Of a stretch of DNA of 64,000 nucleotides, positions 10,808 to 46,492 are shown piece after piece; within the stretch, counting starts at the first letter, position 1, and each line of letters starts with the position of its first letter. Below the pieces are notes generated by a model, which had not been told where the DNA came from, did not search any database, and worked only from the letters and a program-made list of their open reading frames with translations. Origin of the DNA: Rickettsiales bacterium (lineage in GTDB: Bacteria; Pseudomonadota; Alphaproteobacteria; Rs-D84; CACZYB01); the NCBI GenBank assembly GCA_031263095.1, contig JAISGI010000015.1, positions 12,328 to 76,327 on the forward strand, in the 5' to 3' direction. The position numbers and the translations under genes were made by a program.

Positions 10808-10874
10808 GCGCAGGGAAGATTGGCGGCACGGGCTTTGGTTAGACGCAAATACCTCCCGCCAATCTTCCTTGCGC
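10808..10874 (+). ncRNA. conserved structured 3'UTR element of the family (19-bp stem, ~30-nt loop carrying an anti-leader sequence)
   Basis: Stem GCGCAGGGAAGATTGGCGG pairs with CCGCCAATCTTCCTTGCGC, the only mismatch being a G·U pair in the sense transcript. The loop contains GCTTTGGTTAGACGC, complementary to the GTCTAACCAAAG leader. The same element follows copies B and K and, on the minus strand, copy D. Confidence 0.55.
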
Positions 10875-10891
10875 CCGAAACCTCAGGAATC

Positions 10892-12499
10892 TTAAACGCT
10901 CTTCCTAATTTCCTTGACCGCGGCGATAAGCGCGGTGGTCGAGGAATCATGCGCCGCAATGTCCGCGCTTTTCAGGTCGGCAACCACGGCCGAGGCAAGC
11001 TTTTTGCCAAGCTCCACCCCGAACTGGTCGAAACTGTTTATGTCCCACATTACCCCCTCGGCGAACGTCTTGTGCTCGTACAGGGCGACAAGCATGCCGA
11101 GCGAGGCAGGAGTGATTTTCCGCACCAAAAAAGTATTGCTCGGCCGGTTGCCCTCAAACGTCTTGAACGGCGCCAATAAATCGCCCGCAAGCTCCGGCGA
11201 ATCCGCGGCTCGCCCGCGCATAAGCGCCTCGGCCTGGGCAATACCGTTCGCGACAAGCTTTATATGGTGCTCGCCAAGCTCGTTGTGTGACAGCGCAGGT
11301 ATGATAAAGTCGCACATCATGGGCTTCGTGCCCTGGTGGATAAGCTGATAGAAGCTGTGCTGCCCGTTCGTGCCCTCCTCGCCGAACAACACGGGCGAGG
11401 TCTGGTATTTGACCGGCATGCCGTCGCGACCCACGTATTTCCCGTTGCTCTCCATGACAAGCTGTTGCAGGTATGAAGGCAGATAGGCGAGATAGTGGTC
11501 GTACGGCAACACGGCAAGCGTGTCCATGCCCAAAAAATTCGCATTCCATATTTCCATAAGCGCCATGATGATCGGGATATTTTGGCGGAAATCCGTGGAG
11601 CGGAAGTGTCGATCGGCCTCCGCCGCGCCGGCAAGCATGGCCTTGAAGTTTGCCGTGCCGATAGCTATCATGATTGCAAGCCCGATTGGCCCCCACATGG
11701 AATAGCGGCCGCCCACATAGTCGCCGAAGGGGAATACCTGTGCGGTCGGAATACCGAACTCGTTGGCAAGGCGCGCGTTGGTGGAAATCGCCGCGAAATG
11801 GTGCGCGACCGCGCTTGCGCCAAGCTTCTCGATAATCCAATTCCGGCACGTCGCGGCATTGGTCATCGTCTCGTCCGTGGTGAAGGTTTTCGACGATACT
11901 ATGAACAGGGTCGACTCCGGCTCCAGCCGCCGCAAAACCTCAGCCGTGTCCGTCCCGTCGACGTTCGAGATGAAGTGGAAATTGACAAGCGGCGACTTGT
12001 ACGGAAGCAGGGCATGGATAGCCATTTTTGGCCCAAGGAACGATCCGCCGATTCCTATATTCACCACGTCGAGGATTCGCCCCTTCTTCGCACCAGTGAA
12101 ACGTCCGTCCCTTACCCGCTCCGCAAACTCGCTTGTCGCCGCGAAAGTCTCGCGTATGTCGAGGGACACATTGCGCCCGTCCACGGTAAAGTCTTCGTCC
12201 ATGTTGCGAAGCGCGGCATGCAAAACGGCGCGGTTCTCGGTGAAGTTGATTTTCTTGCCAGCGAACATCGCTTCGATTGCCGAGGCCAAACCCGCCTGCT
12301 CCGCCATTTTTACAAGGAACCCGAGGGCTTTTTTATCCACAAGATTCTTGGAAAAGTCGAACATTATGTCGCCCAAGGCAAGGCTCATTTCGCCCGCCCG
12401 CTCCGGCTCTTGGTCGAACAGGTCGGTGATTTTATAGTCGCTTAAATAGGCTTGGTGCTTTTTAAGCTGGCCATAGGCCGACGTTTCGGTGAAATTCAT
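10892..12499 (-). CDS. pgi: glucose-6-phosphate isomerase
   Basis: 535 aa with typical PGI sequence (DYSKN...GGRYSMWGPIGL...HQGTKP). Confidence 0.9.
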   Translation of the reverse strand: MNFTETSAYGQLKKHQAYLSDYKITDLFDQEPERAGEMSLALGDIMFDFSKNLVDKKALGFLVKMAEQAGLASAIEAMFAGKKINFTENRAVLHAALRNMDEDFTVDGRNVSLDIRETFAATSEFAERVRDGRFTGAKKGRILDVVNIGIGGSFLGPKMAIHALLPYKSPLVNFHFISNVDGTDTAEVLRRLEPESTLFIVSSKTFTTDETMTNAATCRNWIIEKLGASAVAHHFAAISTNARLANEFGIPTAQVFPFGDYVGGRYSMWGPIGLAIMIAIGTANFKAMLAGAAEADRHFRSTDFRQNIPIIMALMEIWNANFLGMDTLAVLPYDHYLAYLPSYLQQLVMESNGKYVGRDGMPVKYQTSPVLFGEEGTNGQHSFYQLIHQGTKPMMCDFIIPALSHNELGEHHIKLVANGIAQAEALMRGRAADSPELAGDLLAPFKTFEGNRPSNTFLVRKITPASLGMLVALYEHKTFAEGVMWDINSFDQFGVELGKKLASAVVADLKSADIAAHDSSTTALIAAVKEIRKSV

Positions 12500-12602
12500 T
12501 TGCGTCTCCTTTTTGACCGGAGAATTTTAACATAGTATTTTATTGTTGTAAAGCCCACCTGTTTCTGGTATAATGGTATAGTCAAACCAAAGGAGAAGAC
12601 CG

Positions 12603-13200
12603 ATGACAAGGAACTATAAACGTACGGGGGGGGGCAAATAAGTATATAGCTACTGCGCTTCTTCTGGTTTCAGCCAACAACTCTCAATCTGCCAATTATT
12701 ACACCTGTACCGCCTGCACCGTACCTGGAGCATGCCAACCCGGGGCGACAACGGACTGCAGCCGGTACAACGATGTATATGCGACGGGCAATCAAGGCAA
12801 CGCGGACATGGTGGCTGCATGCATAGGTTCGCCCGACAAAAGCAGGTGGCAGCTTGTCGCCAAATACTCGCTGGGCGATACTGCGGGCAATGTTTCCTCC
12901 GGCAGTCTGACGCCCGGAATCTACCGGTTCGACGGCTATTATTCGGACGACAAATACGGCTATGGCATAGTAATATTCGACCACGAGGTCAAGTATGCGT
13001 TCAAAGATTTCATCTCCAACAGCGAATCCTGCTGCAACCGCATAGTAGTCAATGTGAACAACGAAGATGCGCTGACGCATAACGCACCTGGTACGCAAAC
13101 GGCGGACGTAGGAAATTATCAGGTCAAGGCCGTGCCGAACATAACCCTTTCGGATATGATTCGTACTGGCAAAACAGGCGCAATATACAAACTGAACTAG
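12603..13200 (+). CDS. phase-variable family copy B; G9 at 12626-12634 (ON at 8 G)
   Basis: Same leader (GTCAAACCAAAGGAGAAGACCG-ATG). At 9 G translation stops (..GGC AAA TAA). At 8 G it reads MTRNYKRTGGANKYIATALLLVSANNSQSANYYTCTACTVPGACQPGATTDCSRYNDVYATGNQGNADMVAACIGSPDKSRWQLVAK...GAIYKLN, joining ORF 12808-13200. The promoter has an extended -10 (TGGTATAAT) at about 12569. Confidence 0.8.
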
Positions 13201-13208
13201 AGGGCAGG

Positions 13209-13276
13209 GTGCAGGGAAGATTGGCGGCACGGGCTTTGGTTAGACGCTAAGCGCCTCCCGCCAATCTTTCTTGCGC
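13209..13276 (+). ncRNA. family 3'UTR hairpin element (copy B)
   Basis: Stem GTGCAGGGAAGATTGGCGG pairs with CCGCCAATCTTTCTTGCGC. All three mismatches are G·U or U·G in the sense RNA. The loop is CACGGGCTTTGGTTAGACGCTAAGCGCCTC. Confidence 0.55.
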
Positions 13277-13419
13277 CCAACTCTAAATAGATAAATATTT
13301 CAACCTTTTTTATTGTTTTTATGCCTGTGGTATGCAAAGGCAACTCGCCAGAGTTGTCCTGCATTCCACAGGCGTTTAGGCATGCTTTTTTCCTTGCTTT
13401 TGGCGCTCCCTTTTGCTAG

Positions 13420-15879
<2,460 letters not shown>

Positions 15880-15900
15880 ATAACTGCAAAAGGCTATATA

Positions 15901-16473
15901 ATGGAAATCGAAACCAAACACCGCGTTCACGACCTCTCGAAGCTAAAGGAAGCCCTCGAAAAACAGGGCTTTAGGTACGAGAAGACCAAGCGTCAAATCG
16001 ACCGCTATTACATCCCGCGCGCCTACGACGACAGGGTCGAGACGGTATGGCCGATACTGCCGGATATGGTCGGCAATGTCCGCCTTCGGGAGACCGACGG
16101 CAAAACGCAAAGCCTCGACCTGAAGTATATAGGCGTTGACGTGGACGAGTCTGACGCCAGGAAAATTACCGAATTCGAGGTAGCCATAGCGGACGCTGGC
16201 TCGCTTGCGAACGCTACGAAAATCCTTGACCTGCTTGGCTTTGCCGAGATCTGCGTAATCGACAAGACCCGCGAAATCTGGCGGTTTGAGGAGGTCGAGG
16301 CCTGCCTCGACTCGGTCGCGAACCTAGGCGATTTTATCGAGCTGGAAATAATGTCCGACGACAAGGACTTGGCCGCCGCGCGCCTGGTAAGCCTCGGCGC
16401 CGCGCTTGGCCTGTCCGATTCAGACAAGCTTAAATGGGGCTATAACGAACTTTTGAAAGGACGCAAGAAATGA
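15901..16473 (+). CDS. CYTH-domain protein (class IV adenylate cyclase / triphosphatase family)
   Basis: N-terminal EIETKHRV pattern and acidic motifs typical of CYTH/CYaB; 190 aa. Confidence 0.55.
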   Translation: MEIETKHRVHDLSKLKEALEKQGFRYEKTKRQIDRYYIPRAYDDRVETVWPILPDMVGNVRLRETDGKTQSLDLKYIGVDVDESDARKITEFEVAIADAGSLANATKILDLLGFAEICVIDKTREIWRFEEVEACLDSVANLGDFIELEIMSDDKDLAAARLVSLGAALGLSDSDKLKWGYNELLKGRKK

Positions 16474-17372
16474 GCATTATGGTTTTTGGACACTCCGCGC
16501 CGGACACCGATTCGGTCGTATCGGCCATCGCCGCCGCATACCTGATAGGGGGCGAGCCGTACGTCCAAGGCGAGATTCAGCCCGAGGCGGAATTCGTGCT
16601 TGAAAAATTCGGTTTGGAAACGCCGAAACGGCTGGAATCCGTGGCTGGTGCGGATGTCGCGCTTGTCGATACGACCGAGCCCTCCCAACTGCCGGACGAT
16701 ATTGCCGAGGCGAACGTCAAGTACGTCTTCGACCACCATAACTTGGGCGGTTTGAAGACAAGAGGCGCGTTCGAGGGGTGGTTTATGCCCGTGGGCTGCT
16801 CGTCCACTGTTTTGCGCGACTATGCCGAGTGCGAGGGCAGGGAGCTCCCGGTAAATCTCGCCGGCGCCATGCTCTGCGCCATACTTTCGGATACGGTTCT
16901 GTTCAAGTCGCCGACCACGACCGATGCTGACAAAACTGCGGCCGAGAAGCTTGCCAAAATTGCCGGCATAGAGGACTATAATGCATTGGGCATGGAAATG
17001 CTCCGCGTCAAGTCCGCCATCGGGGACAAGACAGCCGACGACCTTATCGGCGGCGATTACAAGGAAATAGAGATAAACGGCAAGATGTTCGGCACCGGCC
17101 AGATTGAGCTTGTCGACGCATCCATGGCCGACCGCCTGGTTCCGGCGATTCGCGCACGGTTGGAGGAGCTGAAAAACAAGAAAGGCTACTTCGGCATGAT
17201 ATTCCTTATAACGGATATAATGAGGGAGGGCTCCCGCCTGTTCGTCTTCTCGGACGACGACGCGAAAGTCGCCGCCGCGCTCCACGCCGACCTGAACGAC
17301 CACGAGGCTTGGGTCGACGGCCTGATGAGCCGCAAGAAACAGATTGTCATCCCGCTTGGCGAGAAAATCTGA
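16470..17372 (+). CDS. ppaC: manganese-dependent inorganic pyrophosphatase (family II, DHH)
   Basis: MVFGHSAPDTDSV...DHHNLGG DHH motifs, followed by a DHHA2-like C-terminal half. Confidence 0.8.
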   Translation: MSIMVFGHSAPDTDSVVSAIAAAYLIGGEPYVQGEIQPEAEFVLEKFGLETPKRLESVAGADVALVDTTEPSQLPDDIAEANVKYVFDHHNLGGLKTRGAFEGWFMPVGCSSTVLRDYAECEGRELPVNLAGAMLCAILSDTVLFKSPTTTDADKTAAEKLAKIAGIEDYNALGMEMLRVKSAIGDKTADDLIGGDYKEIEINGKMFGTGQIELVDASMADRLVPAIRARLEELKNKKGYFGMIFLITDIMREGSRLFVFSDDDAKVAAALHADLNDHEAWVDGLMSRKKQIVIPLGEKI

Positions 17373-17395
17373 CCGCTAAACAAATTGAAGCTATG

Positions 17396-17425
17396 AAAAA
17401 CCCGCGGCATGTACGTGGGTTTTTC
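17396..17425. terminator. bidirectional terminator hairpin
   Basis: aaaaaCCCgcggcatgtacgtGGGttttt sits between the convergent ppaC gene and the lipoprotein gene. Confidence 0.5.
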
Positions 17426-17494
17426 ATTCAAATTTCCCAATTGAAAAAGACGACCCCGGGCTTTACCCGGGGGAAGTATTTTTCAATTGCCCGG

Positions 17495-18526
17495 CTACTG
17501 CCTTTTAGCACCAAACACACCATATACAGATAACGGCTGATTCGTCGCCGTGTTGTCAAGCCAGAAATTTCCCGCGGTTTCCGATATTATTCCACCCTCA
17601 CCGAAGAAAGAGTGGTTATAGCACTGCCCGCTGCTTGGGTTCCCGCACGTGGCGTTCTCTGCTTGGGACATGTAGTACTTGCTGTTGTTGCCCAGGATGC
17701 GTATTGTGCCGTCGGTCTTATAGGTTATGTTGTACCCCCACGTGTCCTTGAAATTCAGTTGGAGCTGCTCGTTTCCGTTCTGCTCGATGGTGAATATGGA
17801 TTGCCCGGTAAAGTCAGCCCAATCGTCCGTCCCGTCCTTGCCCACGACCGCATAGGCCTTGCCGAAGAAGTTTATTTTTCCAAGGTGCTGGTCTCTGGTC
17901 GCACTCGTGTCGAAAATCTGGCTCTCCGGCCGCGGCACGGTTATGAAGAGGTCATACTCCGGATGCGGCCCGGCGATAAGCTTGCCGTTCAGGAACACCT
18001 GCGACACGCTCTTCCAGTATCCGAAATCCGCATACTGCATGCCGAGCGACCCGCCGCCAAGCACGATCGAAGCGTCGATTCTCTGATTCATGGCGGTTAT
18101 CTTGCTTCTGTCGTATTGGATGCCTAATTGGTTCAGTTGGGAGATAAGCAACTCTGTGCTGCGCGCCTCGTATTTGTCTCCACTGGACGACGTGTATCCG
18201 AACAGCGGTAGGTTCATGGTCTTGTCCGCCTGATACGAGCCCGAGTTGTTCATATAGAAGTCGTTCACGGAGAATGCAACCTCGTCTTTAAGGTCGCTCG
18301 ACTGGTGCCATATATAGTTGATTTTGCCGTCTTCGTTGAAAAAATACTTTACCTGCCCGCCAGACGAGGGATTGACCGCATTATAGTTTATGCCGGTTAT
18401 GTCGTATGTTACAGGCTCGGCGGCAAGGGTGACAATTTTCTCGGCCGGAATATGCACCTCCTTGGGCGAAGACGTCCCGCACGCGCCAAGACAAAGCATG
18501 ATTGCTATAAGGGAAGTGTGTTTCAT
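17495..18526 (-). CDS. surface lipoprotein, TbpB/fHbp-like C-terminus (putative Slam-type SLP)
   Basis: A GAGGAG Shine-Dalgarno site precedes the ATG at 18526. It has a lipoprotein signal (MKHTSLIAIMLCLGAC-G) and a beta-rich body, and ends in ...YGVFGAKRQ. Confidence 0.55.
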   Translation of the reverse strand: MKHTSLIAIMLCLGACGTSSPKEVHIPAEKIVTLAAEPVTYDITGINYNAVNPSSGGQVKYFFNEDGKINYIWHQSSDLKDEVAFSVNDFYMNNSGSYQADKTMNLPLFGYTSSSGDKYEARSTELLISQLNQLGIQYDRSKITAMNQRIDASIVLGGGSLGMQYADFGYWKSVSQVFLNGKLIAGPHPEYDLFITVPRPESQIFDTSATRDQHLGKINFFGKAYAVVGKDGTDDWADFTGQSIFTIEQNGNEQLQLNFKDTWGYNITYKTDGTIRILGNNSKYYMSQAENATCGNPSSGQCYNHSFFGEGGIISETAGNFWLDNTATNQPLSVYGVFGAKRQ

Positions 18527-18602
18527 AATGCTCCTCTCTTTGCCAATATGATACCACAAAATCCCCTTTTCGTCAACAATATATGATTTCTATATAAAAG
18601 CG

Positions 18603-18636
18603 AAAAAATCCTTACGGCGTGTACGTGGGATTTTTT
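18603..18636. promoter_or_regulatory. hairpin element in a divergent promoter region, related to the one at 17396
   Basis: aaaaaaTCCttacggcgtgtacgtGGGAtttttt shares the GTGTACGTGGG core and flanks (…CAAT(T/C)GAAAAAGA) with 17396-17450. Confidence 0.4.
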
Positions 18637-18777
18637 CTCAAACAACCAATCGAAAAAGAGCGGAGCCGCTAGGCGAGCGCGACTTTTCGATTGCTAGTAT
18701 ATTTTTCATATTGCCAAGACGCCGAAAATGTGGTATAATAATCCCAGACATAAGGCAATACCTAGGAGGAGGAAGTC

Positions 18778-19890
18778 ATGCATAAACTCATGAAGTCGAT
18801 ATCGGTTCTGGCGATTCTTGCGCTTGCCGCGTGCGGAGGATCTGATAGCAATAGCCCGAGCGTTGACAATCCTGGCACGGGCTCGGGTACTGGTACCGGT
18901 ACAGGCTCAAAGAATCCGTCGTACAAGACAGATACCCCCACGAACGAGGATATGGTAACCCTTGCCTACGACCTCCCGCTTGGGCTGGTCCAGATTGAGG
19001 GCGATACCGAAATGTACGACATCCTCAAGTACGAGGCCAACACATACAACGAAAATATCGGCCTCTGGTACAGTACCATTCTGAACCTGGACGCTGCAGA
19101 TCCGGATGACGAGATAGAAGTCGAACGGTTCATCCCGGCCAAGCAGTTTATAAAGGACGGCAACGGCAACTGGACGGCCAAGACAACGTTCAATTTCACC
19201 TCCGGAGATTCTTACGCCAAGTTTGTCGATGGGTACATGACCACTTCGGAGGCTTCCGACGCTAATAATTTCGACCTTATCAAGCTTGACGTTGCACCGG
19301 TGCTGATGGGCGCGACTACGGACAAGACGGGCATGGCTTTCGTCGAGTACGGCTATTGGAAAAAGACCGCTTACCAAGGCGCTGTCGCCCAGTTCACTAC
19401 GTTCGAGCCGTTCGTCGGCGGCTTCGAGACGCACATGATTGACGACGCGTTGCTTCCCACGACCGGCGCTGCTATGACATTCTCGGGCCACGCTGGCGGC
19501 GGCATAAACGGCGTCGCTCCCGGCGCGACAAACACCGCCTTGAGCGGCGCGCAGCAGGAGCTTGTCGGCACCTCGTACCTTGTCCTTACTCCCGGCACTA
19601 CCTCGTCCGAAACGCTTAAATTGGCGTTCAACAACTTCTATACGTTCAACTTCACGAACGGCGGCTTCACGAGCATAGAGGGCGCGGCCACCGGAGACTA
19701 TGCCACCGCCTATGCTGGCAAACTTGCAACGTCCGGTGTCGATACGTCCAACAGCGGCTATACCCGCGACTTCTACGGCCGCAACTATACGCCCGAGGAG
19801 GTAGCCGGCATTGCCAACTTGACCATAACCGGAACGGATAGCAACATATACTATCTCAACGCCGCTTTCGGCGCCAAGAAAGCGAAATAG
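18778..19890 (+). CDS. surface lipoprotein paralog, TbpB/fHbp-like C-terminus
   Basis: GGAGGAGG Shine-Dalgarno site, a lipobox (LAILALAAC-G), a G/S/T-rich linker and the motifs FVEYGYWK and ...AAFGAKKAK at the C-terminus. It is transcribed divergently from 17495..18526. Confidence 0.55.
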   Translation: MHKLMKSISVLAILALAACGGSDSNSPSVDNPGTGSGTGTGTGSKNPSYKTDTPTNEDMVTLAYDLPLGLVQIEGDTEMYDILKYEANTYNENIGLWYSTILNLDAADPDDEIEVERFIPAKQFIKDGNGNWTAKTTFNFTSGDSYAKFVDGYMTTSEASDANNFDLIKLDVAPVLMGATTDKTGMAFVEYGYWKKTAYQGAVAQFTTFEPFVGGFETHMIDDALLPTTGAAMTFSGHAGGGINGVAPGATNTALSGAQQELVGTSYLVLTPGTTSSETLKLAFNNFYTFNFTNGGFTSIEGAATGDYATAYAGKLATSGVDTSNSGYTRDFYGRNYTPEEVAGIANLTITGTDSNIYYLNAAFGAKKAK

Positions 19891-19912
19891 TCTATACTGG
19901 CCAAAAGGCTTG

Positions 19913-19944
19913 GAAAAATCCCGGGGTTTCCCCGGGATTTTTTC
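19913..19944 (+). terminator. Rho-independent terminator
   Basis: gaaaaaTCCCGGGGtttCCCCGGGAtttttt. Confidence 0.7.
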
Positions 19945-20032
19945 TCATATCTCCTAATACACAAAAAACTTGTTTTTTGTATTGCTTGACCCCTAAAAAT
20001 ATGGTATAATAATAGCAAACGAGGAGAGAGAT

Positions 20033-20773
20033 ATGAAGCTCAATATCGCAAGTATCGCAGTTTTGGCCGCGCTTGGCCTTGCCGTGCCTGTGTCGGCGGA
20101 CGTGAATTCCAATCCTTGGGAGGATAGGGACAGGGAGGCGAAAATGCCCGGCCACTCGCCTGATTCCGTCGTGTACGAAATCTCCGACATCTGGGCCGGC
20201 CGCGACCGCGAGGAAAATATGAAGGGCGGCGGCCACATGGCCGAGAAGAAAGAGAGTGCTCCCAAGGCGCGCGCCTCAAGCCCTAAAAAGGAAAAGGAGA
20301 CGAAATACGTTTCCTACGAAAAGGAGCCGGAACCCAAATCCCGCCGCTACTCCGACAAGCCGGTCGAGCGCAAGATGTACGCGCCCGCGGCCTATGACGA
20401 CGATCTGACGCCGGATGAGCTTGCCTCCATCGAGCGGTGGCAGAATGGCATAAAGAACGTGTTCTGGGAGGACTATCGCGGAAACAACGTCCGCGTCGAG
20501 GTTCTCCGCACCAACCAGGATGTCAAGGAAATGCGCCTGAAGTTCGTCCAAAGCCAGGATATGAACTCCGATCCTGACGGCTCGGTTACCGCAATGCTCG
20601 ACAATGTGGCGGACGCGGTGATAAAGCGCACCTGCGGCAAGGCCAGCCGGCAGGCGATAATCCTCTACGAGCGCCCCTCGGTCGAGGTCACCAAACAGAC
20701 GACCTACGACGACTATCGCATAGTCGCCCGCGGCGCAAGCTTGCGCGAATACGGCTTCCGCTGTATATACTAG
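20033..20773 (+). CDS. secreted hypothetical protein with a charged K/E/P-rich linker
   Basis: Shine-Dalgarno site GAGGAGAGAG, a signal peptide (MKLNIASIAVLAALGLAVPVSA) and a terminator at 20793-20822. Confidence 0.5.
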   Translation: MKLNIASIAVLAALGLAVPVSADVNSNPWEDRDREAKMPGHSPDSVVYEISDIWAGRDREENMKGGGHMAEKKESAPKARASSPKKEKETKYVSYEKEPEPKSRRYSDKPVERKMYAPAAYDDDLTPDELASIERWQNGIKNVFWEDYRGNNVRVEVLRTNQDVKEMRLKFVQSQDMNSDPDGSVTAMLDNVADAVIKRTCGKASRQAIILYERPSVEVTKQTTYDDYRIVARGASLREYGFRCIY

Positions 20774-20792
20774 CCGACCACTCGCAAGAATG

Positions 20793-20822
20793 AAAAAAAA
20801 GCCGGTTTCGACCGGCTTTTTT
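20793..20822 (+). terminator. Rho-independent terminator
   Basis: aaaaaaaaGCCGGTttcgACCGGCtttttt. Confidence 0.7.
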
Positions 20823-20894
20823 GTAATAATCCCCGCTGCACTAGAAATATTACAATAACATTATTTGATTATTTTTTTTGTTGTTATTATTGTC

Positions 20895-20945
20895 CCTGTG
20901 GGCAAGCGGAGATAACTCGGGAGAGTTATCCTGCTTGTCCACAGG
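20895..20945. repeat. REP-like palindrome, preceded by the CTAGAAATATTACAAT motif (20843-20858) and a T-rich run
   Basis: CCTGTGGgcaagcggagataactcgggagagttatcctgcttgtCCACAGG, followed directly by the copy-C promoter (TTGACA, 17-nt spacer, TATTAT). Confidence 0.6.
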
Positions 20946-21006
20946 CTTGACATATATCCTTATTCATGCTATTATATATAGGTCTAACCAAAGGAGAAAG
21001 ACGGCA

Positions 21007-21547
21007 ATGACATATATGAACAAAAAGCGTACGGGGGGGGGCAAATAAGTATTTAGTTATTGCGCTTCTCCTGATTTCGACTAACTCTCAATCTTCAAAT
21101 TACTATACCTGTACTGCCTGCGCCATACCCGGAGCATGTCAGGCCGGGGCAAACGCAGACTTTGACAAGTACAACACTCCACTTACGCTTGCCGAAGCTA
21201 CCGCCGCAATCGGCACGCCCTCAAAATCGAGATGGAGCCTTATAGATGGTGGCCATTTCGTCAACAAGCGCGGTACTCTCTCGCCCGGAGCTTACATGAT
21301 AAGCGGCAATGCCAGCATGTCCGCCGGAGGCTGCACGTCCCAGGTGGCGGTGTTCGACAGGGAAGTTGGCTATAACCTGCTTGCCGACGGCATAACGATA
21401 GACACGAACAACCCCGTGTTCAGCGGCACTACCTGGGGAGTGTATAGTCCAGCGGACTGCTCGGCAGACACGCTTCAGACTCCTGGCTGGAGCAAGGAGG
21501 ACATAACCGCCCAGTCTTTCGGCAGCTATATATACAAACTCCAATAA
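21007..21547 (+). CDS. phase-variable family copy C; G9 at 21033-21041 (ON at 8 G)
   Basis: Leader GTCTAACCAAAGGAGAAAGACGGCA-ATG. At 9 G it stops (AAA TAA). At 8 G it reads MTYMNKKRTGGANKYLVIALLLISTNSQSSNYYTCTACAIPGACQAGANADFDKYNTPLTLAEATAAIGTPSKSRWSLIDGG...GSYIYKLQ. Confidence 0.8.
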
Positions 21548-21565
21548 ATTTCTGTTGCTGCCACC

Positions 21566-21612
21566 CCTGTGGAAAGTCGGCGACAACTTGTCAAGTTGTC
21601 CCGGCTTTCTAT
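21566..21612. repeat. REP-like palindrome with a degenerate right end
   Basis: CCTGTGGaaagtcggcgacaacttgtcaagttgtcccggctttCTATGG. Confidence 0.5.
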
Positions 21613-21642
21613 GGTCTCCTGAACCAAATATCTTATACCCGG

Positions 21643-21752
21643 GCGCAAGAAAGATTGGCGGAGGGCAAAGATTCCGTCTCCGGAATCCAAAAGCGTCTAA
21701 CCAAAGGGCAGAGAGAATCTGCCTATGCCGAACCCGCCAATCTCACTTGCGC
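21643..21752 (-). ncRNA. family 3'UTR hairpin element belonging to copy D, with an extended loop
   Basis: On the minus strand the stem GCGCAAGTGAGATTGGCGG pairs with CCGCCAATCTTTCTTGCGC. The loop carries CCCTTTGGTTAGACGC (anti-leader) plus a small internal hairpin (GGATTCCggagacGGAATC). Confidence 0.5.
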
Positions 21753-21772
21753 CAGGAAAGGAGCCGGCCAAG

Positions 21773-22358
21773 CTAGTTCAGCCGATAAATCGCGCTGCCA
21801 AGCCTTGTTCCGTAATGGTATATGTCGTCCTCGGCAAGTCCAGGTGTTCTTACGCCCTTGTCTAGGTATCCCGTGACGCGCGTGCTCTCCGTGGTATAGG
21901 TCGCATGGTCGAAGTCTATCATGGTGCACGATTGGTCGGAATATTGGTTGTACAGTTGATACGATATGTCCCTGTCCGCGACCACCACGCGCGAGTCGTA
22001 CATATTGCCACCGGTATAGTTGTCGAAGCGGTATATTCCCGGCGGCAGGGTTCCTCTAGGTTGAGAGTATTGTCCCTCGGCAAGCGCTTCGCCCGATACG
22101 ACCATAGTCCACCTGGCCTTGTCGGGCGTGCCGATGCATGCTGTCGCCTCCTCAAGCGAAAGAACTTTGCGCGGCGGACATTCGGCCGGAGGATTGGCGT
22201 ATTCGCTTACCGCGCCAGCAGAGCAAAATTTCGCGATTGTGCACGCGCTACAGGTGTAGTAATTAGCAGAGTTTGATTTGTTAGTAGATAATAAGAGAAG
22301 CGCAGTAGCTAAGAATAACTTATTTGCCCCCCCCCGTACGCATATCGTTCCTTGTCAT
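21773..22358 (-). CDS. phase-variable family copy D; C9 on the plus strand at 22327-22335 (ON at 8)
   Basis: The reverse strand reads GGTCAAACCAAAGGAGAAGACCG-ATG ACA AGG AAC GAT ATG CGT ACG-G9. At 8 G it gives MTRNDMRTGGANKLFLATALLLLSTNKSNSANYYTCSACTIAKFCSAGA...CIGTPDKARWTMVVSGE...AIYRLN. The promoter has an extended -10 (TGATATAAT). Confidence 0.8.
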
Positions 22359-22498
22359 CGGTCTTCTCCTTTGGTTTGACCTTTATATTATATCATACTT
22401 TACCCATATAATCAAGGACAATGATAACAAAAAATATTATTGTAATATTTCTAGCGCACCGGGAAATGCTGCAAAAAACCCGGCTGAAAACTGGCTTT

Positions 22499-23185
22499 TC
22501 ACTCTTTCAGGAATTCGCTTTCCATGCTTTCAAGCTGCTTGAGTTGCCGTTCCAGGTCGCGCACTTCGGAGGCTTTATAGCCATCCTCGTCCGCCGAGGT
22601 CGCATCCTCTAGGGGCGCCACATCCGGGCGGTTCAGGCTTTCGAATTTAAGCTCGGATTCCGAGATATTGCTGTGGACAAGCTCGTGCACCGGCTTGAAA
22701 GCCCCGTCGTCCGGAAGCAGCATGGCTACGAACAGCGCACTCGAGCGAAGCACCGGCTTTGATTTCGCCTGCTGAACCCAATCGGGACGCTCGGCCGGGT
22801 TGGGCATGAACCACAGTATCCCAATATACACCGCCGCCATAAGCAATATGCCCCTCATTATCCCGAACAGGAAGCCAAGGGACTTGTCTATGCCGTCGAA
22901 GCTCGTCTCGCGCAGGCGGGTACCGGACCAGTGGCCGATGAAGCTCAGAAGCATTATCACGATAACGAAGACCGATATATATGACGCTATGCTGACCAGC
23001 ATTGCGCTGTGCCCGAAGACTCCGGCGAACATCGGCTCGGCCATTGGAGAGAACGCCTTGGCAAGCAGGGCGGCGGCTATCCACGATACAACCGAAAGCA
23101 CGCCGGCGATGAAGCCTCCGCTATAGCCGAATACTGCGGACGCAGCCACCATCGCTATAAATATGAAGTCCATAAGCGTCAGCAT
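22499..23185 (-). CDS. cvpA: CvpA-family membrane protein (colicin V production protein homolog)
   Basis: Four TM helices at the N-terminus with a charged C-terminal tail; typical CvpA architecture. Confidence 0.65.
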   Translation of the reverse strand: MLTLMDFIFIAMVAASAVFGYSGGFIAGVLSVVSWIAAALLAKAFSPMAEPMFAGVFGHSAMLVSIASYISVFVIVIMLLSFIGHWSGTRLRETSFDGIDKSLGFLFGIMRGILLMAAVYIGILWFMPNPAERPDWVQQAKSKPVLRSSALFVAMLLPDDGAFKPVHELVHSNISESELKFESLNRPDVAPLEDATSADEDGYKASEVRDLERQLKQLESMESEFLKE

Positions 23186-23299
23186 AGTATCCTTAGTATA
23201 CCATACCAGGCAGGCAAAATCAAGGGATGGTTTATTTACTGATTGACTGGTTTAGGGATTTGTAGTATAATAGGAGTGTCAAACCAAAGGAGAAGACCG

Positions 23300-23895
23300 A
23301 TGACAAGGAACTATAAACGTACGGGGGGGGGCAAAAGGCTAAATACCTAGCATTCGCGCTTCTCTTACTATCTGCCAATAACTCTCAATCAGCAAACTAC
23401 TACACCTGCTCGGCATGTGCTGTGCCTGAACTATGCAAAGCAGGCGCAGGCACGGACTTTGACAAGTACAACGCCCCACTCACACTTGCCGAGGCTACCG
23501 CCGCCATAGGAACGCCCGCAAAATCCCGTTGGACGCTTGTCGATTCATTCGAGGAATATGGAAGCAAGCCTGGCACTCTGTCGCCGGGACTATATAGAGT
23601 CGACGCCTCGGGCATCACAAGCGTCGGCTGCCTAAGAATATCGCAAACCGTGGCCATGTCCAAGGATACCGGATACATTATGAGGAGCAGCTCGCTCCCC
23701 GCCGAGGGGAATTGCGCAGGCTGCGCCGGAGTTGTATTCGACAGCAACAATGCAACATACTCGAGCGTTTCATACACGGTAGTGGCTCAAAATAGTACGG
23801 CCTACTCGCAAAGCTACACTCCTGGTATAACCCAAGATGACTTCGCGCCAGCCGATTGCTCCACTCACAAAACGGCGATTTATAGATTAAATTAA
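23300..23895 (+). CDS. phase-variable family copy E; G9 at 23323-23331 (ON at 10 G)
   Basis: Leader GTCAAACCAAAGGAGAAGACCG-ATG. At 9 G it stops at TAG. At 10 G it reads MTRNYKRTGGGQKAKYLAFALLLLSANNSQSANYYTCSACAVPELCKAGAGTDFDKYNAPLTLAEATAAIGTPAKSRWTLVD...TAIYRLN. The promoter has TGTAGTATAAT. Confidence 0.8.
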
Positions 23896-23917
23896 AATAT
23901 TTTTTGTTATTATTATA

Positions 23918-23967
23918 CCTGTGGTAAGCGGGAGATAACTTGAAAAGTTATCCTCGCTTTCCACAGG
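23918..23967. repeat. REP-like palindrome
   Basis: CCTGTGGtaagcgggagataacttgaaaagttatcctcgctttCCACAGG. Confidence 0.6.
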
Positions 23968-23970
23968 CCT

Positions 23971-24675
23971 CTAACGCAACTGTAACTTCTCCGCCATGAA
24001 ATCCATAAGGCTATAACTCTTGCCGTCAAGCGACACCTGCTTAGCCTCCGCATAGCGGCTGATTGCGACGAAGTACAATATTTCGGCTTTCTTGAACCGG
24101 TACGCCTGCACGGTTTTAAGGTCGGCCCGACCCTTTGCACGCGCGAGGAAATCCTCGATTGCGCCGCATGGCGCCACAAGGAAAGCCCTTTTCTCCGCTA
24201 CTTCAACCATGGCCTCATCGACGCGCGCCACACCCGCCGCACCCGCGTCAAGCGGTAGTTTTACGCCAATAAGCGCAAGCGGCCGCATTGTCTTGGCAAG
24301 CGCGAAAGCCATCTCGTCCGGACTCGCCGCCTTGCGCCGTGCGCCCTCGACCGCTATGCACAAAAAGTCGCGACCCGCCGGCACGGGGATAAAGTCAAGC
24401 CGGTCAAGGACTTTCTCGTCGAACGTCGCGCCAAAGAATATATCCACGTTCGTATTCCCTTTCGGGTCGTATATCATCGCGGACTGCAACGCGCTGTTGT
24501 ATGAATCCGCAGGCACCGAACGAACGCTTGCGTCCGTCCCGTCGAAGATTTTCTCCATAGCCGACTTGGCCACAGCCGCCAAATACGGCGGGGCGACATA
24601 ACGCAAAGTCTCGCCCGCGAACACAGGCAAACCGGCAAGCAGCAGAAATATAAATAACTTTCTCAAACCCCTCAA
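23971..24675 (-). CDS. periplasmic hypothetical protein (possibly a substrate-binding-like fold)
   Basis: Signal peptide MRGLRKLFIFLLLAGLPVFAGE. No firm motif. Confidence 0.35.
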   Translation of the reverse strand: MRGLRKLFIFLLLAGLPVFAGETLRYVAPPYLAAVAKSAMEKIFDGTDASVRSVPADSYNSALQSAMIYDPKGNTNVDIFFGATFDEKVLDRLDFIPVPAGRDFLCIAVEGARRKAASPDEMAFALAKTMRPLALIGVKLPLDAGAAGVARVDEAMVEVAEKRAFLVAPCGAIEDFLARAKGRADLKTVQAYRFKKAEILYFVAISRYAEAKQVSLDGKSYSLMDFMAEKLQLR

Positions 24676-26477: not shown

Positions 26478-26527
26478 CCTGTGGTAAGCGGGAGATAACT
26501 TGAAAAGTTATCCTCGCTTTCCACAGG
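26478..26527. repeat. REP-like palindrome
   Basis: CCTGTGGtaagcgggagataacttgaaaagttatcctcgctttCCACAGG, identical in core to 23918 and 41501. Confidence 0.6.
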
Positions 26528-29902: not shown

Positions 29903-29954
29903 CCTGTGGAATCCGGAAATTATTTGCTGCGCAAATTATTCTGGATTCCACAGG
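29903..29954. repeat. REP-like palindrome (variant core)
   Basis: CCTGTGGaatccggaaattatttgctgcgcaaattattctggattCCACAGG. The centre differs from other copies but is still self-complementary. Confidence 0.6.
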
Positions 29955-30000
29955 GCACATGTGATATAATCATAAAGTCTAACCAAAGGAGAAGACGACA

Positions 30001-30562: not shown

Positions 30563-30608
30563 CCTGTGGAAAGGTGTGCAATCTAAAAGTTGTGCACGGT
30601 TCCACAGG
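30563..30608. repeat. REP-like palindrome (variant core)
   Basis: CCTGTGGaaaggtgtgcaatctaaaagttgtgcacggttCCACAGG. Confidence 0.6.
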
Positions 30609-32154: not shown

Positions 32155-32201
32155 ACACATGTGATATAATCATAAAGTCTAACCAAAGGAGAAAGACGAC
32201 A

Positions 32202-32828: not shown

Positions 32829-32879
32829 CCTGTGGGATTAGTGTGCAACTCTAACGGAGTTGTGCACGGATTCCACAGG
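32829..32879. repeat. REP-like palindrome (variant core)
   Basis: CCTGTGGgattagtgtgcaactctaacggagttgtgcacggattCCACAGG. Confidence 0.6.
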
Positions 32880-38445: not shown

Positions 38446-38459
38446 TTATCCAAGATTGT

Positions 38460-39020
38460 TTAATTCAGCTTGTACAAATACACCATGCCGGAAGTCCTGT
38501 CCATATCGGAAAGTGTGAGGCCGGGTGTGGCCATCCTTCCGCCGTTGGGGTTATTTGCGTACATTTGTGCTCCGTAAACCAAAACATTCTCTGCAGATCC
38601 CATATAAGGCGATTTGAAGAATACAAGGTCGGTGCAAGCATTGTTCAAACACCCTCCGGCATTCAACAGCGAATATATACGCACAGAGGCAGGCTGGTTC
38701 AATACCACTATGTTGGACGAGTAACTATTCCCGGCTACGTAGGCGTCTATGCGATAGACTCCAGGTGCGTAAAGGTTATCCGCTGAAGCGCTTATGCCAT
38801 TGCCGGGCGAAGAAGTTTGGGCGACGACCTGCCACCTCGATTTTTCCGGCGTTCCTATTGCTGCTGTCGCTTCTTCAAGCGTCAATACAGCATTGTACCT
38901 GCAATCTTGGGTGGCGCCGGATTGGCAGGCACCGGGCACGGCGCACGCCGAACAGGAATAATAGTTCGCCGCACCGGCTGGCATTGCCATAAGCATCACC
39001 ATTGCTAGTAGTTTTTTCAT
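38460..39020 (-). CDS. family copy I with no homopolymer tract: constitutive-type member with a standard signal peptide
   Basis: MKKLLAMVMLMAMPAGA-ANYYSCSACAVPGACQSGATQDCRYNAVLTLEEATAAIGTPEKSRWQVV...PGVYRIDAY...PGLTLSDMDRTSGMVYLYKLN. Shine-Dalgarno site AAGGAGG-ACTGA-ATG. It has all the family motifs but a different, uninterrupted leader. Confidence 0.85.
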   Translation of the reverse strand: MKKLLAMVMLMAMPAGAANYYSCSACAVPGACQSGATQDCRYNAVLTLEEATAAIGTPEKSRWQVVAQTSSPGNGISASADNLYAPGVYRIDAYVAGNSYSSNIVVLNQPASVRIYSLLNAGGCLNNACTDLVFFKSPYMGSAENVLVYGAQMYANNPNGGRMATPGLTLSDMDRTSGMVYLYKLN

Positions 39021-40152: not shown

Positions 40153-40857
40153 TTACATATCCGCCCGGGTCTTCACCACCTTGTCAATCAAGCCAAAGCC
40201 TTGGGCTTCCTCGGCGCTCATGAAGTTGTCCCGCTCGACCGCTGCGGCGACCTCGGCAATCGGCCGCCCGGTGTGGAATGCATAAAGCGAATTGAGCTTC
40301 TCCCTGGTCTTCAAAATCTCCCGCGCGTGAATCTCGATGTCCGTGGCCTGACCTTGGTACCCGCCAAGCGGCTGGTGTATCATTATGCGCGAGTTGGTAA
40401 GCGCGAATCGCTTGCCCTTCGCACCGCCGGCGAGCAGAAACGAGCCCATCGAGCACGCCTGGCCAAGACAAAGCGTGGCCACATCCGGCTTGACGTACTG
40501 CATGGTGTCGTATATTGCAAGACCCGATGTCACTACACCGCCTGGCGAGTTTATGTACATGAATATGTCCTTGTCCGGGTTCTCCGACTCGAGAAACACA
40601 AGCTGCGCCACGACGAGCGAGGCCGAGGCATCGTTTATCTCACCGTTGATGAAGATTATACGCTCCTTGAGTAGGCGCGAGAATATGTCGAAACTCCGCT
40701 CGCCGCGGGCCGTCTGCTCGATTACATAGGGTATGAAATTCATTGAATCATCCATTTGAGGCTCCTTTTTTAAGAAGAGTCTAACATACTTTTTAGCCGT
40801 TGTAAAGCCTGTGGAAAGCCAAACGGTTATCCTCGCTTTCCACAGGAAAAATAACAA
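40153..40857 (-). CDS. clpP: ATP-dependent Clp protease proteolytic subunit
   Basis: Ser-His-Asp triad context ([14 protein letters not shown]...MIHQP). Confidence 0.9.
40808..40846. repeat. REP-like palindrome plus GGACTAGAATTATTACAAT motif (40861-40879, minus orientation)
   Basis: CCTGTGGaaagccaaacggttatcctcgctttCCACAGG. The motif's TAG is the stop codon of copy J. Confidence 0.55.
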
Positions 40858-40878
40858 AATTCAATTATTGTAATAATT

Positions 40879-41439
40879 CTAGTCCAGCTTATATATTGCT
40901 GCTTTGCCTTCCGAGCCTATGTCGTCACTTGTTATCCCTGGAGTAGTGATTACAACCGACGGTGCGTTATCTCTGACAGCCTGCTGTATATACCAATTAG
41001 GGTCATTGGGCTTGCGCGTCCATATCCACCCGCATAATAAACCGTCGCATTCAATTGTATGTTCCAAGTATCCTGTACGATTGTCGGGAATAACAGCCAC
41101 TCCGGAGCGTTTGTTGTTTGCAGCGCGTATGACGTCGAACCTATACACCCCTGGCACAAGCTCGACCGACTGATGATCTCCGGCAAATGCACTTTGCTTC
41201 ACAAGACTCCACCTTGATTTCTCGGGAGTACCTATGCAGCGTGTTGCCTCCTCAAACGAAAGTATGTTTTCTGTATAGGCGCAATCCTTTGTCATTCCTG
41301 CCTGACAAGCCCCTGGTACAGAACAATTGGTACAGGTATAGTAGTTTGATGATTGAGAGTTGTTGGCTGAAATCAGGAGAAGCGCAATAGCTAAATACTT
41401 ATTTGCCCCCCCCCGTACGCTTTTTGTTCATAATACTCA
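40879..41439 (-). CDS. phase-variable family copy J; C9 at 41405-41413 (ON at 8)
   Basis: The reverse strand reads GTCTAACCAAAGGATAAAGACATTA-ATG AGT ATT ATG AAC AAA AAG CGT ACG-G9. At 8 it gives MSIMNKKRTGGANKYLAIALLLISANNSQSSNYYTCTNCSVPGACQAGMTKDCAYTENILSFEEATRCIGTPEKSRWSLV...AAIYKLD. The promoter is TTGACA, 18-nt spacer, TATAGT. Confidence 0.8.
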
Positions 41440-41500
41440 TTAATGTCTTTATCCTTTGGTTAGACAATTATACTATATCATCATTTATTATTGTTGTCAA

Positions 41501-41550
41501 CCTGTGGTAAGCGGGAGATAACTTGAAAAGTTATCCTCGCTTTCCACAGG
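41501..41550. repeat. REP-like palindrome
   Basis: CCTGTGGtaagcgggagataacttgaaaagttatcctcgctttCCACAGG. Confidence 0.6.
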
Positions 41551-41567
41551 CGCTCTATACAACTATC

Positions 41568-42470: not shown

Positions 42471-42481
42471 TTTCTCCTCCT

Positions 42482-44629: not shown

Positions 44630-45717
44630 TTAAGCCGCCTTGCAAGGAATATTATTCCGCCGATTGCGGATATATAGACAACCGGCCATATATAGCGGTT
44701 GATTGCCATCGCGTCATAGGACGAGATAAGACCAATCTGCGCTCCGACCATAACCGCCGCGGCGATAATGCTGTGCCTGCTTGCCGAGCGGGAGATTAAA
44801 GGGCTCGAGAATATTGCCGCAAGCGCGATAAGCGCGAACAATACGTTCATAAGCGGGGACAAGAGCCGCCGGTGCAGCTCGACCATAATCCTCAAATAGT
44901 GATTATCGCTATGCGCAAGCCCGCGCTCGCGCGCGAACAAAAGGTCTAAGGCCGAGAATTCATCCAAATTCGGGCTTCTCTCCTCCTGCTGGGATACAAG
45001 GCCAAGGTCGGCCGTATAGTGTTCGAACGTGCCGAAAGTGTATTTGTCGCCGTTCTTCTCCTGTATGCTGCCGTTCTCTAGGATAAGTATGGCCGAGTCT
45101 TTGCTCGGGCGTATAATACCTTTTTGGGCGATTATGGTGCGCGCCATGCCGGAGCGCCGACTGTCGTTGACAAATATGTCGCTCATGGTGTTGTTGAAGG
45201 CGCTTTTGACATAGATTGTGACGCCTTGGGTAAGTTGGTTGAACTCGCCCTCTTTGATAAGCAGGGCCGATAGGTCGTTTTTGGACGAGGAAATCATGTT
45301 GCGGTATGCGCGCGAACCTGCCGGCGCGACGAACATGGTACACGCATAGGCGACTATCATGCCGGCAGCCGCGACGATAAGAGCCGGTCGTGCAAGCCGC
45401 TTGGGCGGCAGGCCCGCGGCCTCCATTATGACAAGCTCCCTGTCCGCGATAAGACGGTTATATACGAACAGTATTACGGAAAATATCGCGATAGGCATGA
45501 TTATGACAATCAGGTCTGGAAGCAAAAGGGACGTCATCTTTATGAACGTCCAGAAAGAAAGCGAGTTGTTCACAAGATAGGACAGCAGGCGGATAATCTG
45601 GGAAAACCAGGCAATGCCAAGCAGAATCGCGCCGACTATGGCGGCGCCTGCGACAATCTGCCCCGCTATGTACCTGTCAAGGGTGCTTGGTTTTCGAAAC
45701 ATACGCCGATGATACAC
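44626..45717 (-). CDS. LptF/LptG-family LPS export permease
   Basis: YjgP/YjgQ architecture, translationally coupled to lptD. Confidence 0.75.
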   Translation of the reverse strand: MYHRRMFRKPSTLDRYIAGQIVAGAAIVGAILLGIAWFSQIIRLLSYLVNNSLSFWTFIKMTSLLLPDLIVIIMPIAIFSVILFVYNRLIADRELVIMEAAGLPPKRLARPALIVAAAGMIVAYACTMFVAPAGSRAYRNMISSSKNDLSALLIKEGEFNQLTQGVTIYVKSAFNNTMSDIFVNDSRRSGMARTIIAQKGIIRPSKDSAILILENGSIQEKNGDKYTFGTFEHYTADLGLVSQQEERSPNLDEFSALDLLFARERGLAHSDNHYLRIMVELHRRLLSPLMNVLFALIALAAIFSSPLISRSASRHSIIAAAVMVGAQIGLISSYDAMAINRYIWPVVYISAIGGIIFLARRLK

Positions 45718-45814
45718 CGTGCCATTGCCTAACTCAATAAATTTTTTCTGTTATTCTTGACACCAACCGCGACTTATGGTATATTCTAAAAGTCAACCAA
45801 AGGAGAAGACAATA

Positions 45815-46416
45815 ATGACATATATGAACAAAGTACGTACGGGGGGGGGCAAAAGGCTAAATACATAGCATTCGCACTTCTCTTACTATCTGCCAATAAC
45901 TCTCAATCATCCAATTATTATACCTGTACCGCATGCACAATTCCTGGCGCATGCCAGGCTGGAGCGACGCAAGAGTGCACATACAACGTAATGCTTACTA
46001 AGGCAAGCGCGATAGGTTGTTTCGGCTCGCCCTCCAAGGAAAGTTGGACGCTTGTGGACAAGGTAACAAGCGGCAACAGGTCCGGCACCTTGCAAAAGGG
46101 AATATATAGGTTCGAGGCTATAATCCCCGGTCATCCCGGCCATGCAAGCACAGCCGCAGTGGTCTTCGACCACCCGGTCGGCTATATAATGTACAGGCAA
46201 GCCTCAACCGGAACGCCGGGTTGGCCTAACATCACATGCGACGCATGCCCTGGAATCCTTGTGGATTTGAACAGTCAGACATACTCCGGTGCGTCGCTGT
46301 TCTTCGTGGCAAACGGCGCTGGTATCGGGACAGGCTCGAATGTTCCAAATATAACAACCGAAGCCGACATGGATTCCGCTTCAGGAGTGCACGCGGCTAT
46401 ATACAAGCTGAACTAG
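45815..46416 (+). CDS. phase-variable family copy K; G9 at 45841-45849 (ON at 10 G)
   Basis: Leader GTCAACCAAAGGAGAAGACAATA-ATG ACA TAT ATG AAC AAA GTA CGT ACG-G9. At 10 G it reads MTYMNKVRTGGGQKAKYIAFALLLLSANNSQSSNYYTCTACTIPGACQAGATQECTYNVMLTKASAIGCFGSPSKESWTLVD...AAIYKLN. The promoter has TGGTATATT. Confidence 0.8.
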
Positions 46417-46424
46417 AGGGCAGG

Positions 46425-46492
46425 GCGCAGGGAAGATTGGCGGCACGGACTTTGGTTAGACGCTAAGCACCTCCCGCCAATCTTCTCTGCGC
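46425..46492 (+). ncRNA. family 3'UTR hairpin element (copy K)
   Basis: Stem GCGCAGGGAAGATTGGCGG pairs with CCGCCAATCTTCTCTGCGC, the single mismatch being G·U. The loop is CACGGACTTTGGTTAGACGCTAAGCACCTC. Confidence 0.55.

Follow-up and report, generated by a model that had tools for sequence, protein, structure and literature searches.

The DNA examined here is a 64 kb window, by which we mean the whole stretch analysed, from a metagenome-assembled genome (MAG) filed as 'Rickettsiales bacterium' with locus tags LBL52_*. It holds twelve paralogs, A to L, of a secreted protein of about 190 amino acids that are encoded on both strands and scattered among housekeeping genes (pgi, gyrB, rho, serS, lptD/F/G, nrdD, miaB and ruvA). 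The family protein has no match in Pfam or NCBIfam, and its AlphaFold model (predicted local distance difference test score, pLDDT, of 72) is mostly beta-strand with no significant match in the PDB. Each of the twelve copies has its own sigma-70-like promoter with -35 and -10 elements, followed by a nearly invariant 5' block in the order GTC(T/A)AACCAAAGGAG, ATG, an invariant CGTACG, a tract of nine G residues (G9) and a conserved signal peptide; the mature proteins are 17-46% identical pairwise. The subject of this report is a further element, a long hairpin that lies immediately downstream of copies A, B, D and K and carries in its loop the reverse complement of the leader found at the start of the 5' block.

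Hairpin A (10806..10876, plus strand) starts 5 nt past the TAG of copy A (10798-10800) and consists of a 21-bp stem (10806-10826 pairing with 10856-10876) and a 29-nt loop, in which the motif CTTTGGTTAGAC occupies positions 10833-10844. Hairpins B (13207..13278) and K (46423..46494), likewise on the plus strand, both start 6 nt past the stop codons of their genes (13198-13200 and 46414-46416, respectively) and combine a 21-bp stem, which in B includes three G·U/U·G pairs, with a 30-nt loop holding the motif at 13234-13245 and 46450-46461. Hairpin D (21642..21753, minus strand) is an extended form that starts 19 nt past the stop of copy D (21775-21773); its outer stem comprises 8+12 pairs around one U·U mismatch and encloses a 72-nt loop, in which two inserted sub-hairpins flank the motif (21695-21706) and leave it single-stranded. 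This arrangement bears out an initial annotation of the same DNA, which had placed an element directly behind the stop codons of A, B and K and an extended version behind D; the loop of about 30 nt that it described also holds, while the stem of A, B and K is longer than the 19 bp it had given. Read on the sense strand, the stem of A, B and K is formed by GGG[C/T]GCAGGGAAGATTGGCGG pairing with CCGCCAATCTT..GCGCCC. The predicted fold energies of the four sense strands are -50.4/-53.8/-54.7/-65.2 kcal/mol, with z-scores of -5 to -8 against shuffled sequences, and the antisense strands fold less well in every case (-47.2/-38.4/-51.7/-62.5 kcal/mol). The hairpin is real, non-random and specific to the family.

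Three of the four hairpins (A, K and D) lie between convergent genes. Hairpin A is situated 15 nt beyond the stop of the convergent pgi gene (10892) and hairpin K 22 nt beyond that of a convergent radical-SAM (nrdG-like) gene (46517); owing to this proximity both hairpins would also form the 3' ends of the pgi and radical-SAM transcripts. Reading hairpin A on its antisense strand, the sequence that comes after it is TTTTCCTATT. Copies C (plus strand) and D (minus strand) converge on a 228-bp spacer (21548-21775) that contains one palindrome resembling repetitive extragenic palindromic (REP) sequences together with the extended hairpin of D, and read-through from C would give the antisense of hairpin D, i.e. 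a leader-like GCGTCTAACCAAAGGG RNA. Scanning positions 10000-24000, which include hairpins A, B and D, revealed no promoter-like site directly upstream of these three, and a promoter inside the element was considered for either strand and rejected.

All four loops share an invariant 14-nt sequence, CTTTGGTTAGACGC, while the remaining loop positions differ between copies. The 12-nt core of this sequence is the exact reverse complement of the leader GTCTAACCAAAG. Allowing at most one mismatch, this 12-mer occurs at 15 sites in the window against an expectation of 0.18, all of them family leaders or hairpin loops, and in 200,000 shuffles of the loop, compared with the leader in both orientations, a match of 12 nt never arose. 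The complementarity had initially been described as perfect for every family mRNA, which is accurate for seven of the twelve copies, namely C (20982..20993), F (29977..29988), G (32177..32188) and I (51294..51305) on the plus strand and H (41454..41465), J (54572..54583) and L (60489..60500) on the minus strand; these are the candidate targets. The other five leaders are imperfect and include those of all the hairpin genes: A (10201..10212, plus), B (12581..12592, plus) and D (22369..22380, minus) read GTCAAACCAAAG with one mismatch to the loop, as does E (23278..23289, plus), a copy without a hairpin, and K (45792..45802, plus) reads GTCAACCAAAG, that is GTC-AACCAAAG with a 1-nt deletion. That all four hairpin genes fall among the five with imperfect leaders has a naive Fisher p of 0.01.

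The -10 hexamers end 6-7 nt before the leader motif, and the spacer upstream is variable; from this spacing the leader motif would correspond to mRNA nucleotides +1..+12, its last 4 nt being the start of the AAAGGAG Shine-Dalgarno sequence. Leader conservation thus sets in exactly where transcription is predicted to start. The loop-leader duplex has a predicted energy of -19.4 kcal/mol for the perfect leaders and of up to -24.1 kcal/mol with the 13-nt complement present in D. Pairing with a hairpin gene's own leader brings an A·A mismatch in A, B and D and a deletion in K, so that own-leader duplexes reach -10.6 to -19.5 kcal/mol overall compared with -19.4 to -24.1 kcal/mol for perfect leaders; with loops A, B and K, the mismatched or shortened leaders give -10 to -16 kcal/mol. 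Opening the loop motif costs 1.0 kcal/mol in D and 4.7-9.1 kcal/mol in A, K and B, and opening the leader 1.5-5 kcal/mol. The complementarity between loop and leader is far beyond chance and thermodynamically adequate. All four loops additionally carry an anti-Shine-Dalgarno-like CCUCC at their 3' edge beside the stem (e.g. 10850-10856, 13252-13258 and 46468-46474); we dropped it as a part of the leader pairing, since from that side of the motif it could not lengthen the duplex with the leader.

The way in which the stems vary bears on whether the hairpin acts as RNA or as DNA. Of 20 aligned stem pairs 15 are constant and five vary on one side. Standard pairs fill 79 of the 80 pair cells, six of them as G·U or U·G, and the exception is the U·U of hairpin D, which qualifies the earlier statement that all stem differences are wobble pairs; one stem position is G·U in A and B, G-C in K and A-U in D. 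The five one-sided transitions all produce G·U pairs when the sense strand is read, whereas the antisense strand would have A·C in their place, in agreement with what had been noted initially (p≈0.03 under a 50:50 model). Transitions in the conserved 5' block of the family are symmetric between the strands (21 versus 21), and a general C>T or A>G bias of the sense strand is therefore not the cause of the stem pattern. This asymmetry is suggestive of an RNA made from the sense strand, although it falls short of proof, and a duplex-DNA or cruciform function does not predict it. The claim of a functional RNA structure is thus favoured by the better folding of the sense strand in all four copies and by the wobble asymmetry, whereas covariation lends it no support: 371 of 500 shuffles reach the observed score with the four sequences available, and with four copies from one genome covariation cannot be established.

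Pairwise locus alignments of A, B and K resolve two islands of identity, the 5' block (mostly 60-100%) and the hairpin (83-96%), separated by a coding region with 13-60% identity per 30-column block; the mature proteins of these three copies share 29-32% amino-acid identity. Behind the stem, identity falls at once in the A-B and A-K comparisons and some 30 nt further on in B-K, and D is more diverged and shows no comparable peak. The islands around a variable coding region mark the hairpin as a discrete module, and the hairpin-bearing genes do not form one clade in the star-like protein tree. Judging from these alignments, the hairpin is kept constant either by selection or by concerted evolution.

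The G tract at the other end of the gene is uniform. It lies inside the region encoding the signal peptide, with CGTACG just before it, and comprises exactly nine G in all twelve copies (10246-10254, 12626-12634, 21033-21041, 22327-22335, 23323-23331, 30024-30032, 32228-32236, 41406-41414, 45841-45849, 51339-51347, 54530-54538 and 60443-60451). At this length every copy is out of frame with its own ATG and translation ends after about 12-17 codons. Eight copies would be in frame at G8 or G11, and four (A, E, F and K), which carry a 4-nt AGGC insertion just downstream of the tract, at G10 or G7. The family is apparently phase-variable, but if slipped-strand events changed the tracts at random, one would hardly expect G9 throughout; transcriptional slippage, selection for the OFF state or homogenisation by the assembler could explain this uniformity.

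Taking these observations together, the reading that we tentatively place first is that of a transcribed 3'UTR stem-loop which caps the mRNA at its 3' end and whose antisense loop is directed at the transcripts of sister genes, mainly in trans; we consider it plausible without calling it probable. According to this model the 21-bp stem would block 3'-5' exonucleases and thereby define and stabilise the mRNA 3' end, and it would likewise stabilise any fragment with the hairpin at its end that arises by decay or processing. The loop of such a hairpin RNA would then pair with nucleotides +1..+12 of the sister mRNAs, starting at the G of GTCTAACC, and would mask part of the ribosome-binding site, so that translation of the sister copies falls; the duplex might also create a substrate for RNase III, and the pairing may have a protective effect on the 5' end of the target. 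The initial annotation had left the choice between a 3'UTR-derived RNA that cross-represses the paralogs and 5'-3' pairing in cis. Location, sense-strand fold and complementarity fit an RNA element that pairs with the leader, albeit in a single genome, and the mismatched leaders of the hairpin genes themselves favour cross-repression in trans, exerted by A, B, D and K on the seven copies whose leaders match perfectly, over pairing in cis.

A more speculative extension would tie the hairpin to the reading frame. The rho gene is present in the window, and if the out-of-frame copies are subject to Rho, the 3'UTR would be transcribed efficiently only from an in-frame copy, which would couple the in-frame (ON) copy to the silencing of the others. 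Mutual exclusion among phase-variable paralogs, in which ribosomes shield the mRNA of the in-frame copy from Rho, its hairpin silences the sisters and its own leader mismatch spares the producer, strikes us as quite improbable.

Several points weigh against the RNA-antisense reading. It draws on relationships between sequences, and the steps of the mechanism are proposals. The element is known from four copies in one genome, and the searches described below turned up no further copy. The wobble asymmetry is based on just five events, the covariation controls are not significant, and the high identity of the hairpins could be due to gene conversion instead of selection. The pattern of imperfect leaders amounts to two independent mutations only, A, B, D and E sharing one 5' block; the motif in loop B is partly self-paired and takes 9 kcal/mol to open; the terminator hairpin with U-tail that characterises small RNAs (sRNAs) of the Hfq type is present in none of the four copies; and a 12-bp inverted repeat is expected of a DNA recombination or protein-binding site as well. 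Nevertheless, among the readings weighed here the RNA-antisense one is the best supported, if unproven.

Its closest parallel is icaR of Staphylococcus aureus, where base-pairing of the 3'UTR with the ribosome-binding region blocks initiation and creates a substrate for RNase III (PMC3868564). Both cases feature a 3'UTR motif complementary to a ribosome-binding region, but in icaR a short UCCCCUG anti-Shine-Dalgarno motif within a long 3'UTR acts on the mRNA of the same, single gene, whereas the motif described here is 12 nt long, forms part of a loop closed by a 21-bp stem, is complementary to the predicted first 12 nt of the mRNA and thereby to only 4 nt of the Shine-Dalgarno sequence, and matches the sister leaders better than its own. 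For the present motif the pairing is a prediction from sequence. The second parallel is provided by the sRNAs that derive from 3'UTRs. In most of the known cases such an RNA has a Rho-independent terminator and U-tail at its end; they rely on Hfq or ProQ, carry their seed 5' of the terminator and act on unrelated targets. The element resembles such RNAs, for instance GlnZ (PMC9731577), UhpU (PMC12704781) and the RNase III-processed ManS (PMC11745405), in that it is encoded in sense at an mRNA's 3' end, is not preceded by a separate promoter (in A, B and D, as scanned) and contains a conserved seed complementary to translation-initiation regions, in this case seven leaders. It differs in lacking a U-tail, in placing the seed within the loop and in being predicted to target paralogs of its host gene.

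A simpler explanation, which we regard as somewhat unlikely, is that the hairpin serves as a structural 3' end only, be it a stabiliser, an RNase III site or a transcript boundary that at A, K and D also serves the convergent gene, and that the leader match is a relic without a function in pairing, as would be left if the leader had been copied in inverted orientation and trapped between the arms. A long GC-rich stem without a U-tract does resemble stabilisers of the REP type, three of the four hairpins lie between convergent genes, and at the same place other members of the family have palindromes of a different kind or canonical terminators, so that any 3' hairpin may do. The antisense loop also bears a weak additional resemblance to the leader flanks (17/19 in A, and a gapped extension in D). 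What speaks for pairing by contrast is that the 14-nt motif does not change although the remaining loop positions do, and that it is single-stranded even in the remodelled loop of D; a relic without function should decay like the other loop positions. The force of this argument is tempered by the fact that, at about 10% divergence, zero changes in 14 nt are not improbable (about 0.2).

Palindromes of the REP and BIME (bacterial interspersed mosaic element) types, Correia elements and Rickettsia palindromic elements (RPEs) occur as many dispersed copies irrespective of the neighbouring gene. The hairpin shares with REP/BIME sequences a GC-rich palindrome located right after genes and free of a U-tract, and like them it would be expected to stabilise the upstream mRNA or to be cut by RNase III, but its four copies within 64 kb all occupy the same position behind one family and have a loop that is tied to the family leader (dispersed extragenic palindromes are reviewed in PMC10969869). 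The window contains a separate set of REP-like palindromes of about 48 nt (CTGTGG...ATAACTT..AAGTTAT...CCACAG), with 11 copies against 0.03 expected, at 6077-6125, 13325-13371, 20896-20944, 23919-23966, 26479-26526, 29904-29953, 30564-30607, 32830-32878, 40809-40845, 41502-41549 and 54621-54668. Frequently such a palindrome sits a short way upstream of a family promoter, or close behind the stop codon of a copy without the hairpin.

An explanation at the level of DNA, according to which the 12-bp inverted repeat is an inversion site, the conserved blocks are handles for gene conversion, or the palindrome is mobile in the manner of a MITE (miniature inverted-repeat transposable element) or an RPE, is in our estimate unlikely. 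Its attraction lies in the architecture of the family: the 12-bp GTCTAACCAAAG at the leader recurs in inverted orientation in the loop and so brackets the gene, both strands carry family genes, a hypervariable core lies between conserved 5' and 3' blocks as is typical of recombining antigen families, the genome is rich in palindromic repeats, and a tyrosine recombinase is encoded between copies F and G (30614-31483, minus strand). There is also a precedent in the Vpma/Xer1 system of Mycoplasma agalactiae, a multigene family of variable surface proteins subject to site-specific inversion, whose recombination sites lie in the conserved 5'UTR beside xer1 (PMC2268961); with it the present family shares the conserved 5'UTR and signal peptide, a short 5'UTR sequence in both orientations and a tyrosine recombinase among the copies.

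The details fit inversion less well. Vpma genes depend on one promoter with silent copies in one locus, whereas here all twelve copies have promoters and G tracts of their own and are scattered among housekeeping genes, with no single expression site serving promoterless silent copies, and the inverted site is enclosed in a hairpin. Inversion predicts junctions of the form -10 box/GTCTAACCAAAG/CCCGTGCCGCC, or a -10 box and GTCTAACCAAAG joined to CCCGTGCCGCCAATC; no recombinant junction or half-hairpin was seen in the window, where the arm AGATTGGCGG occurs only as four intact inverted pairs. The recombinase (289 aa, with Phage_integrase and SAM-like N domains) has as its best model a generic XerD/XerC type (305.8 bits, NF001399) and scores below the cut-offs of the XerD and XerC equivalogs; it is probably a housekeeping enzyme, which would become a candidate should DNA inversion be shown. 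As to mobility, no direct repeats suggestive of target-site duplications flank the four stems, and the constant position relative to the family stop codon is unlike independent insertions. We rejected a dispersed element of the REP/BIME, RPE or MITE kind, given that only four copies were found in the window and three related loci, all behind family genes.

That GTCTAACCAAAG is instead the site of a DNA- or RNA-binding regulator, with the inverted 3' copy as auxiliary operator or decoy, is very improbable: a family-specific motif at +1..+12 is in a typical position for a repressor and invariant in all four loops, but a palindrome of 21 bp around the site would be superfluous for a double-stranded operator, the sense transcript would offer an RNA-binding protein the complement and not the same sequence, and no candidate regulator is evident beside the copies.

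Two further classes were rejected. An intrinsic (Rho-independent) terminator would require a U-tract and a loop of about 3-8 nt. No U-tract follows any of the four stems (sense tails CGAAACCTCA, AACTCTAAAT, GAGCCAAAAA and GGGTATAAGA), the loops measure 29-30 nt or, in D, 72 nt and are far too large, and a terminator scan does not list the hairpins, all of which upholds the initial view that the element is not a simple terminator. An integron attC site is contradicted by a stem base of GGGCGC/GCGCCC in place of paired R''/R' (RYYYAAC/GTTRRRY) and by the absence of bulges from the stems of A, B and K; there is an attC-like GTTAGAC in the loop, with its partner GTCTAAC about 600 bp away, but the integron integrase model reaches 130 bits where its cut-off is 265, and the genes bear promoters and are dispersed.

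A covariance model was built from the four copies and applied without filters to the window together with three related loci; it recovers the same four hairpins, each after a family gene, and no others. The loose pattern GATTGGCGGN{20,50}CCGCCAATC returned 119 chance palindromes from unrelated phyla in a genome collection, none of them with the loop motif. The pattern AGATTGGCGGN{4,34}CTTTGGTTAGAC gave two chance matches in metagenome contigs, one in a Bacteroidetes-like coding region and one on an unrelated contig, and nothing in viral contigs; a BLAST search of hairpin D against plasmids yielded no match. Among Rfam families tRNA alone passes the gathering threshold, and the hairpins give sub-threshold look-alikes of miRNA precursors that are generic for long hairpins. 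Protein searches likewise show the family to be essentially confined to the LBL52_* MAG, and every truncated open reading frame of the G-tract type that we traced lies in this MAG. Six or more of its contigs are involved, family genes being carried by contigs with minimum lengths of 105, 62, 47, 39, 21 and 12 kb. Another Rickettsiales MAG (LBT92) encodes a distant homolog, which comes without leader motif, G tract and hairpin. The contigs retrieved from Logan are short and broken at repeats, and none spans a hairpin. Conservation beyond the present copies, on which the initial annotation had made its proposal depend, was thus not found in the collections searched, though for lack of data and not as a demonstration that relatives are without the element.

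Two relatives of the family depart from the common plan. A thirteenth member in the window (38460-39020, minus strand) and another on a different contig (L120, 275-793) have no G tract, a different 5'UTR and ordinary signal peptides (MKKLLAMV... and MKKNFCII..., respectively). The former, like copy L, ends in a canonical terminator formed by a stem and a T-run, and its ribosome-binding region still has AACCAAAGGAGG. The C-terminal domain of about 130 amino acids (…EATACIGTP.KSRW.LV…PGIYR.D…TPGIT…IYKLN), exemplified by 12634-13197 of the window and by 10001-10753 of the LBT92 locus (L124), was found by profile search in 53 representative proteins, some of which have long and different N-terminal regions.

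With respect to organisation the family is reminiscent of the Opa proteins of Neisseria, comprising about a dozen dispersed paralogs with their own promoters and a slippage-prone repeat in the signal-peptide region that sets the frame. In Opa the repeat unit is CTCTT, and no RNA cross-talk between the copies is known. The present family differs in that the G9 tract is identical in all copies and that a subset carries the 3' antisense hairpin. General background on contingency gene families is available elsewhere (PMC5320596).

Bacterial 3'UTRs are an under-explored regulatory layer, and the known cases target either their own mRNA, as in icaR, or unrelated genes, as with the 3'UTR-derived sRNAs. 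The hairpin would be a candidate variant of this 3'UTR-based regulation, as yet unproven, and not a new category. Even if it merely stabilises transcripts, it would still constitute a clean family-specific 3' module conserved beside a hypervariable coding region. If the RNA-antisense reading is true, paralogous contingency genes would have their common 5' end targeted by a 3'UTR loop; this would represent a different kind of link, one that connects stochastic ON/OFF switching, at the level of DNA or of transcription, to RNA cross-talk within the family. Mutual exclusion, if it were true, would give bacteria a post-transcriptional counterpart to the rule of 'one gene expressed at a time' that is known from antigen families. 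For a host-associated Rickettsiales lineage, loop-mediated cross-talk of this kind would provide a way to order or restrict the expression of its surface-protein repertoire.

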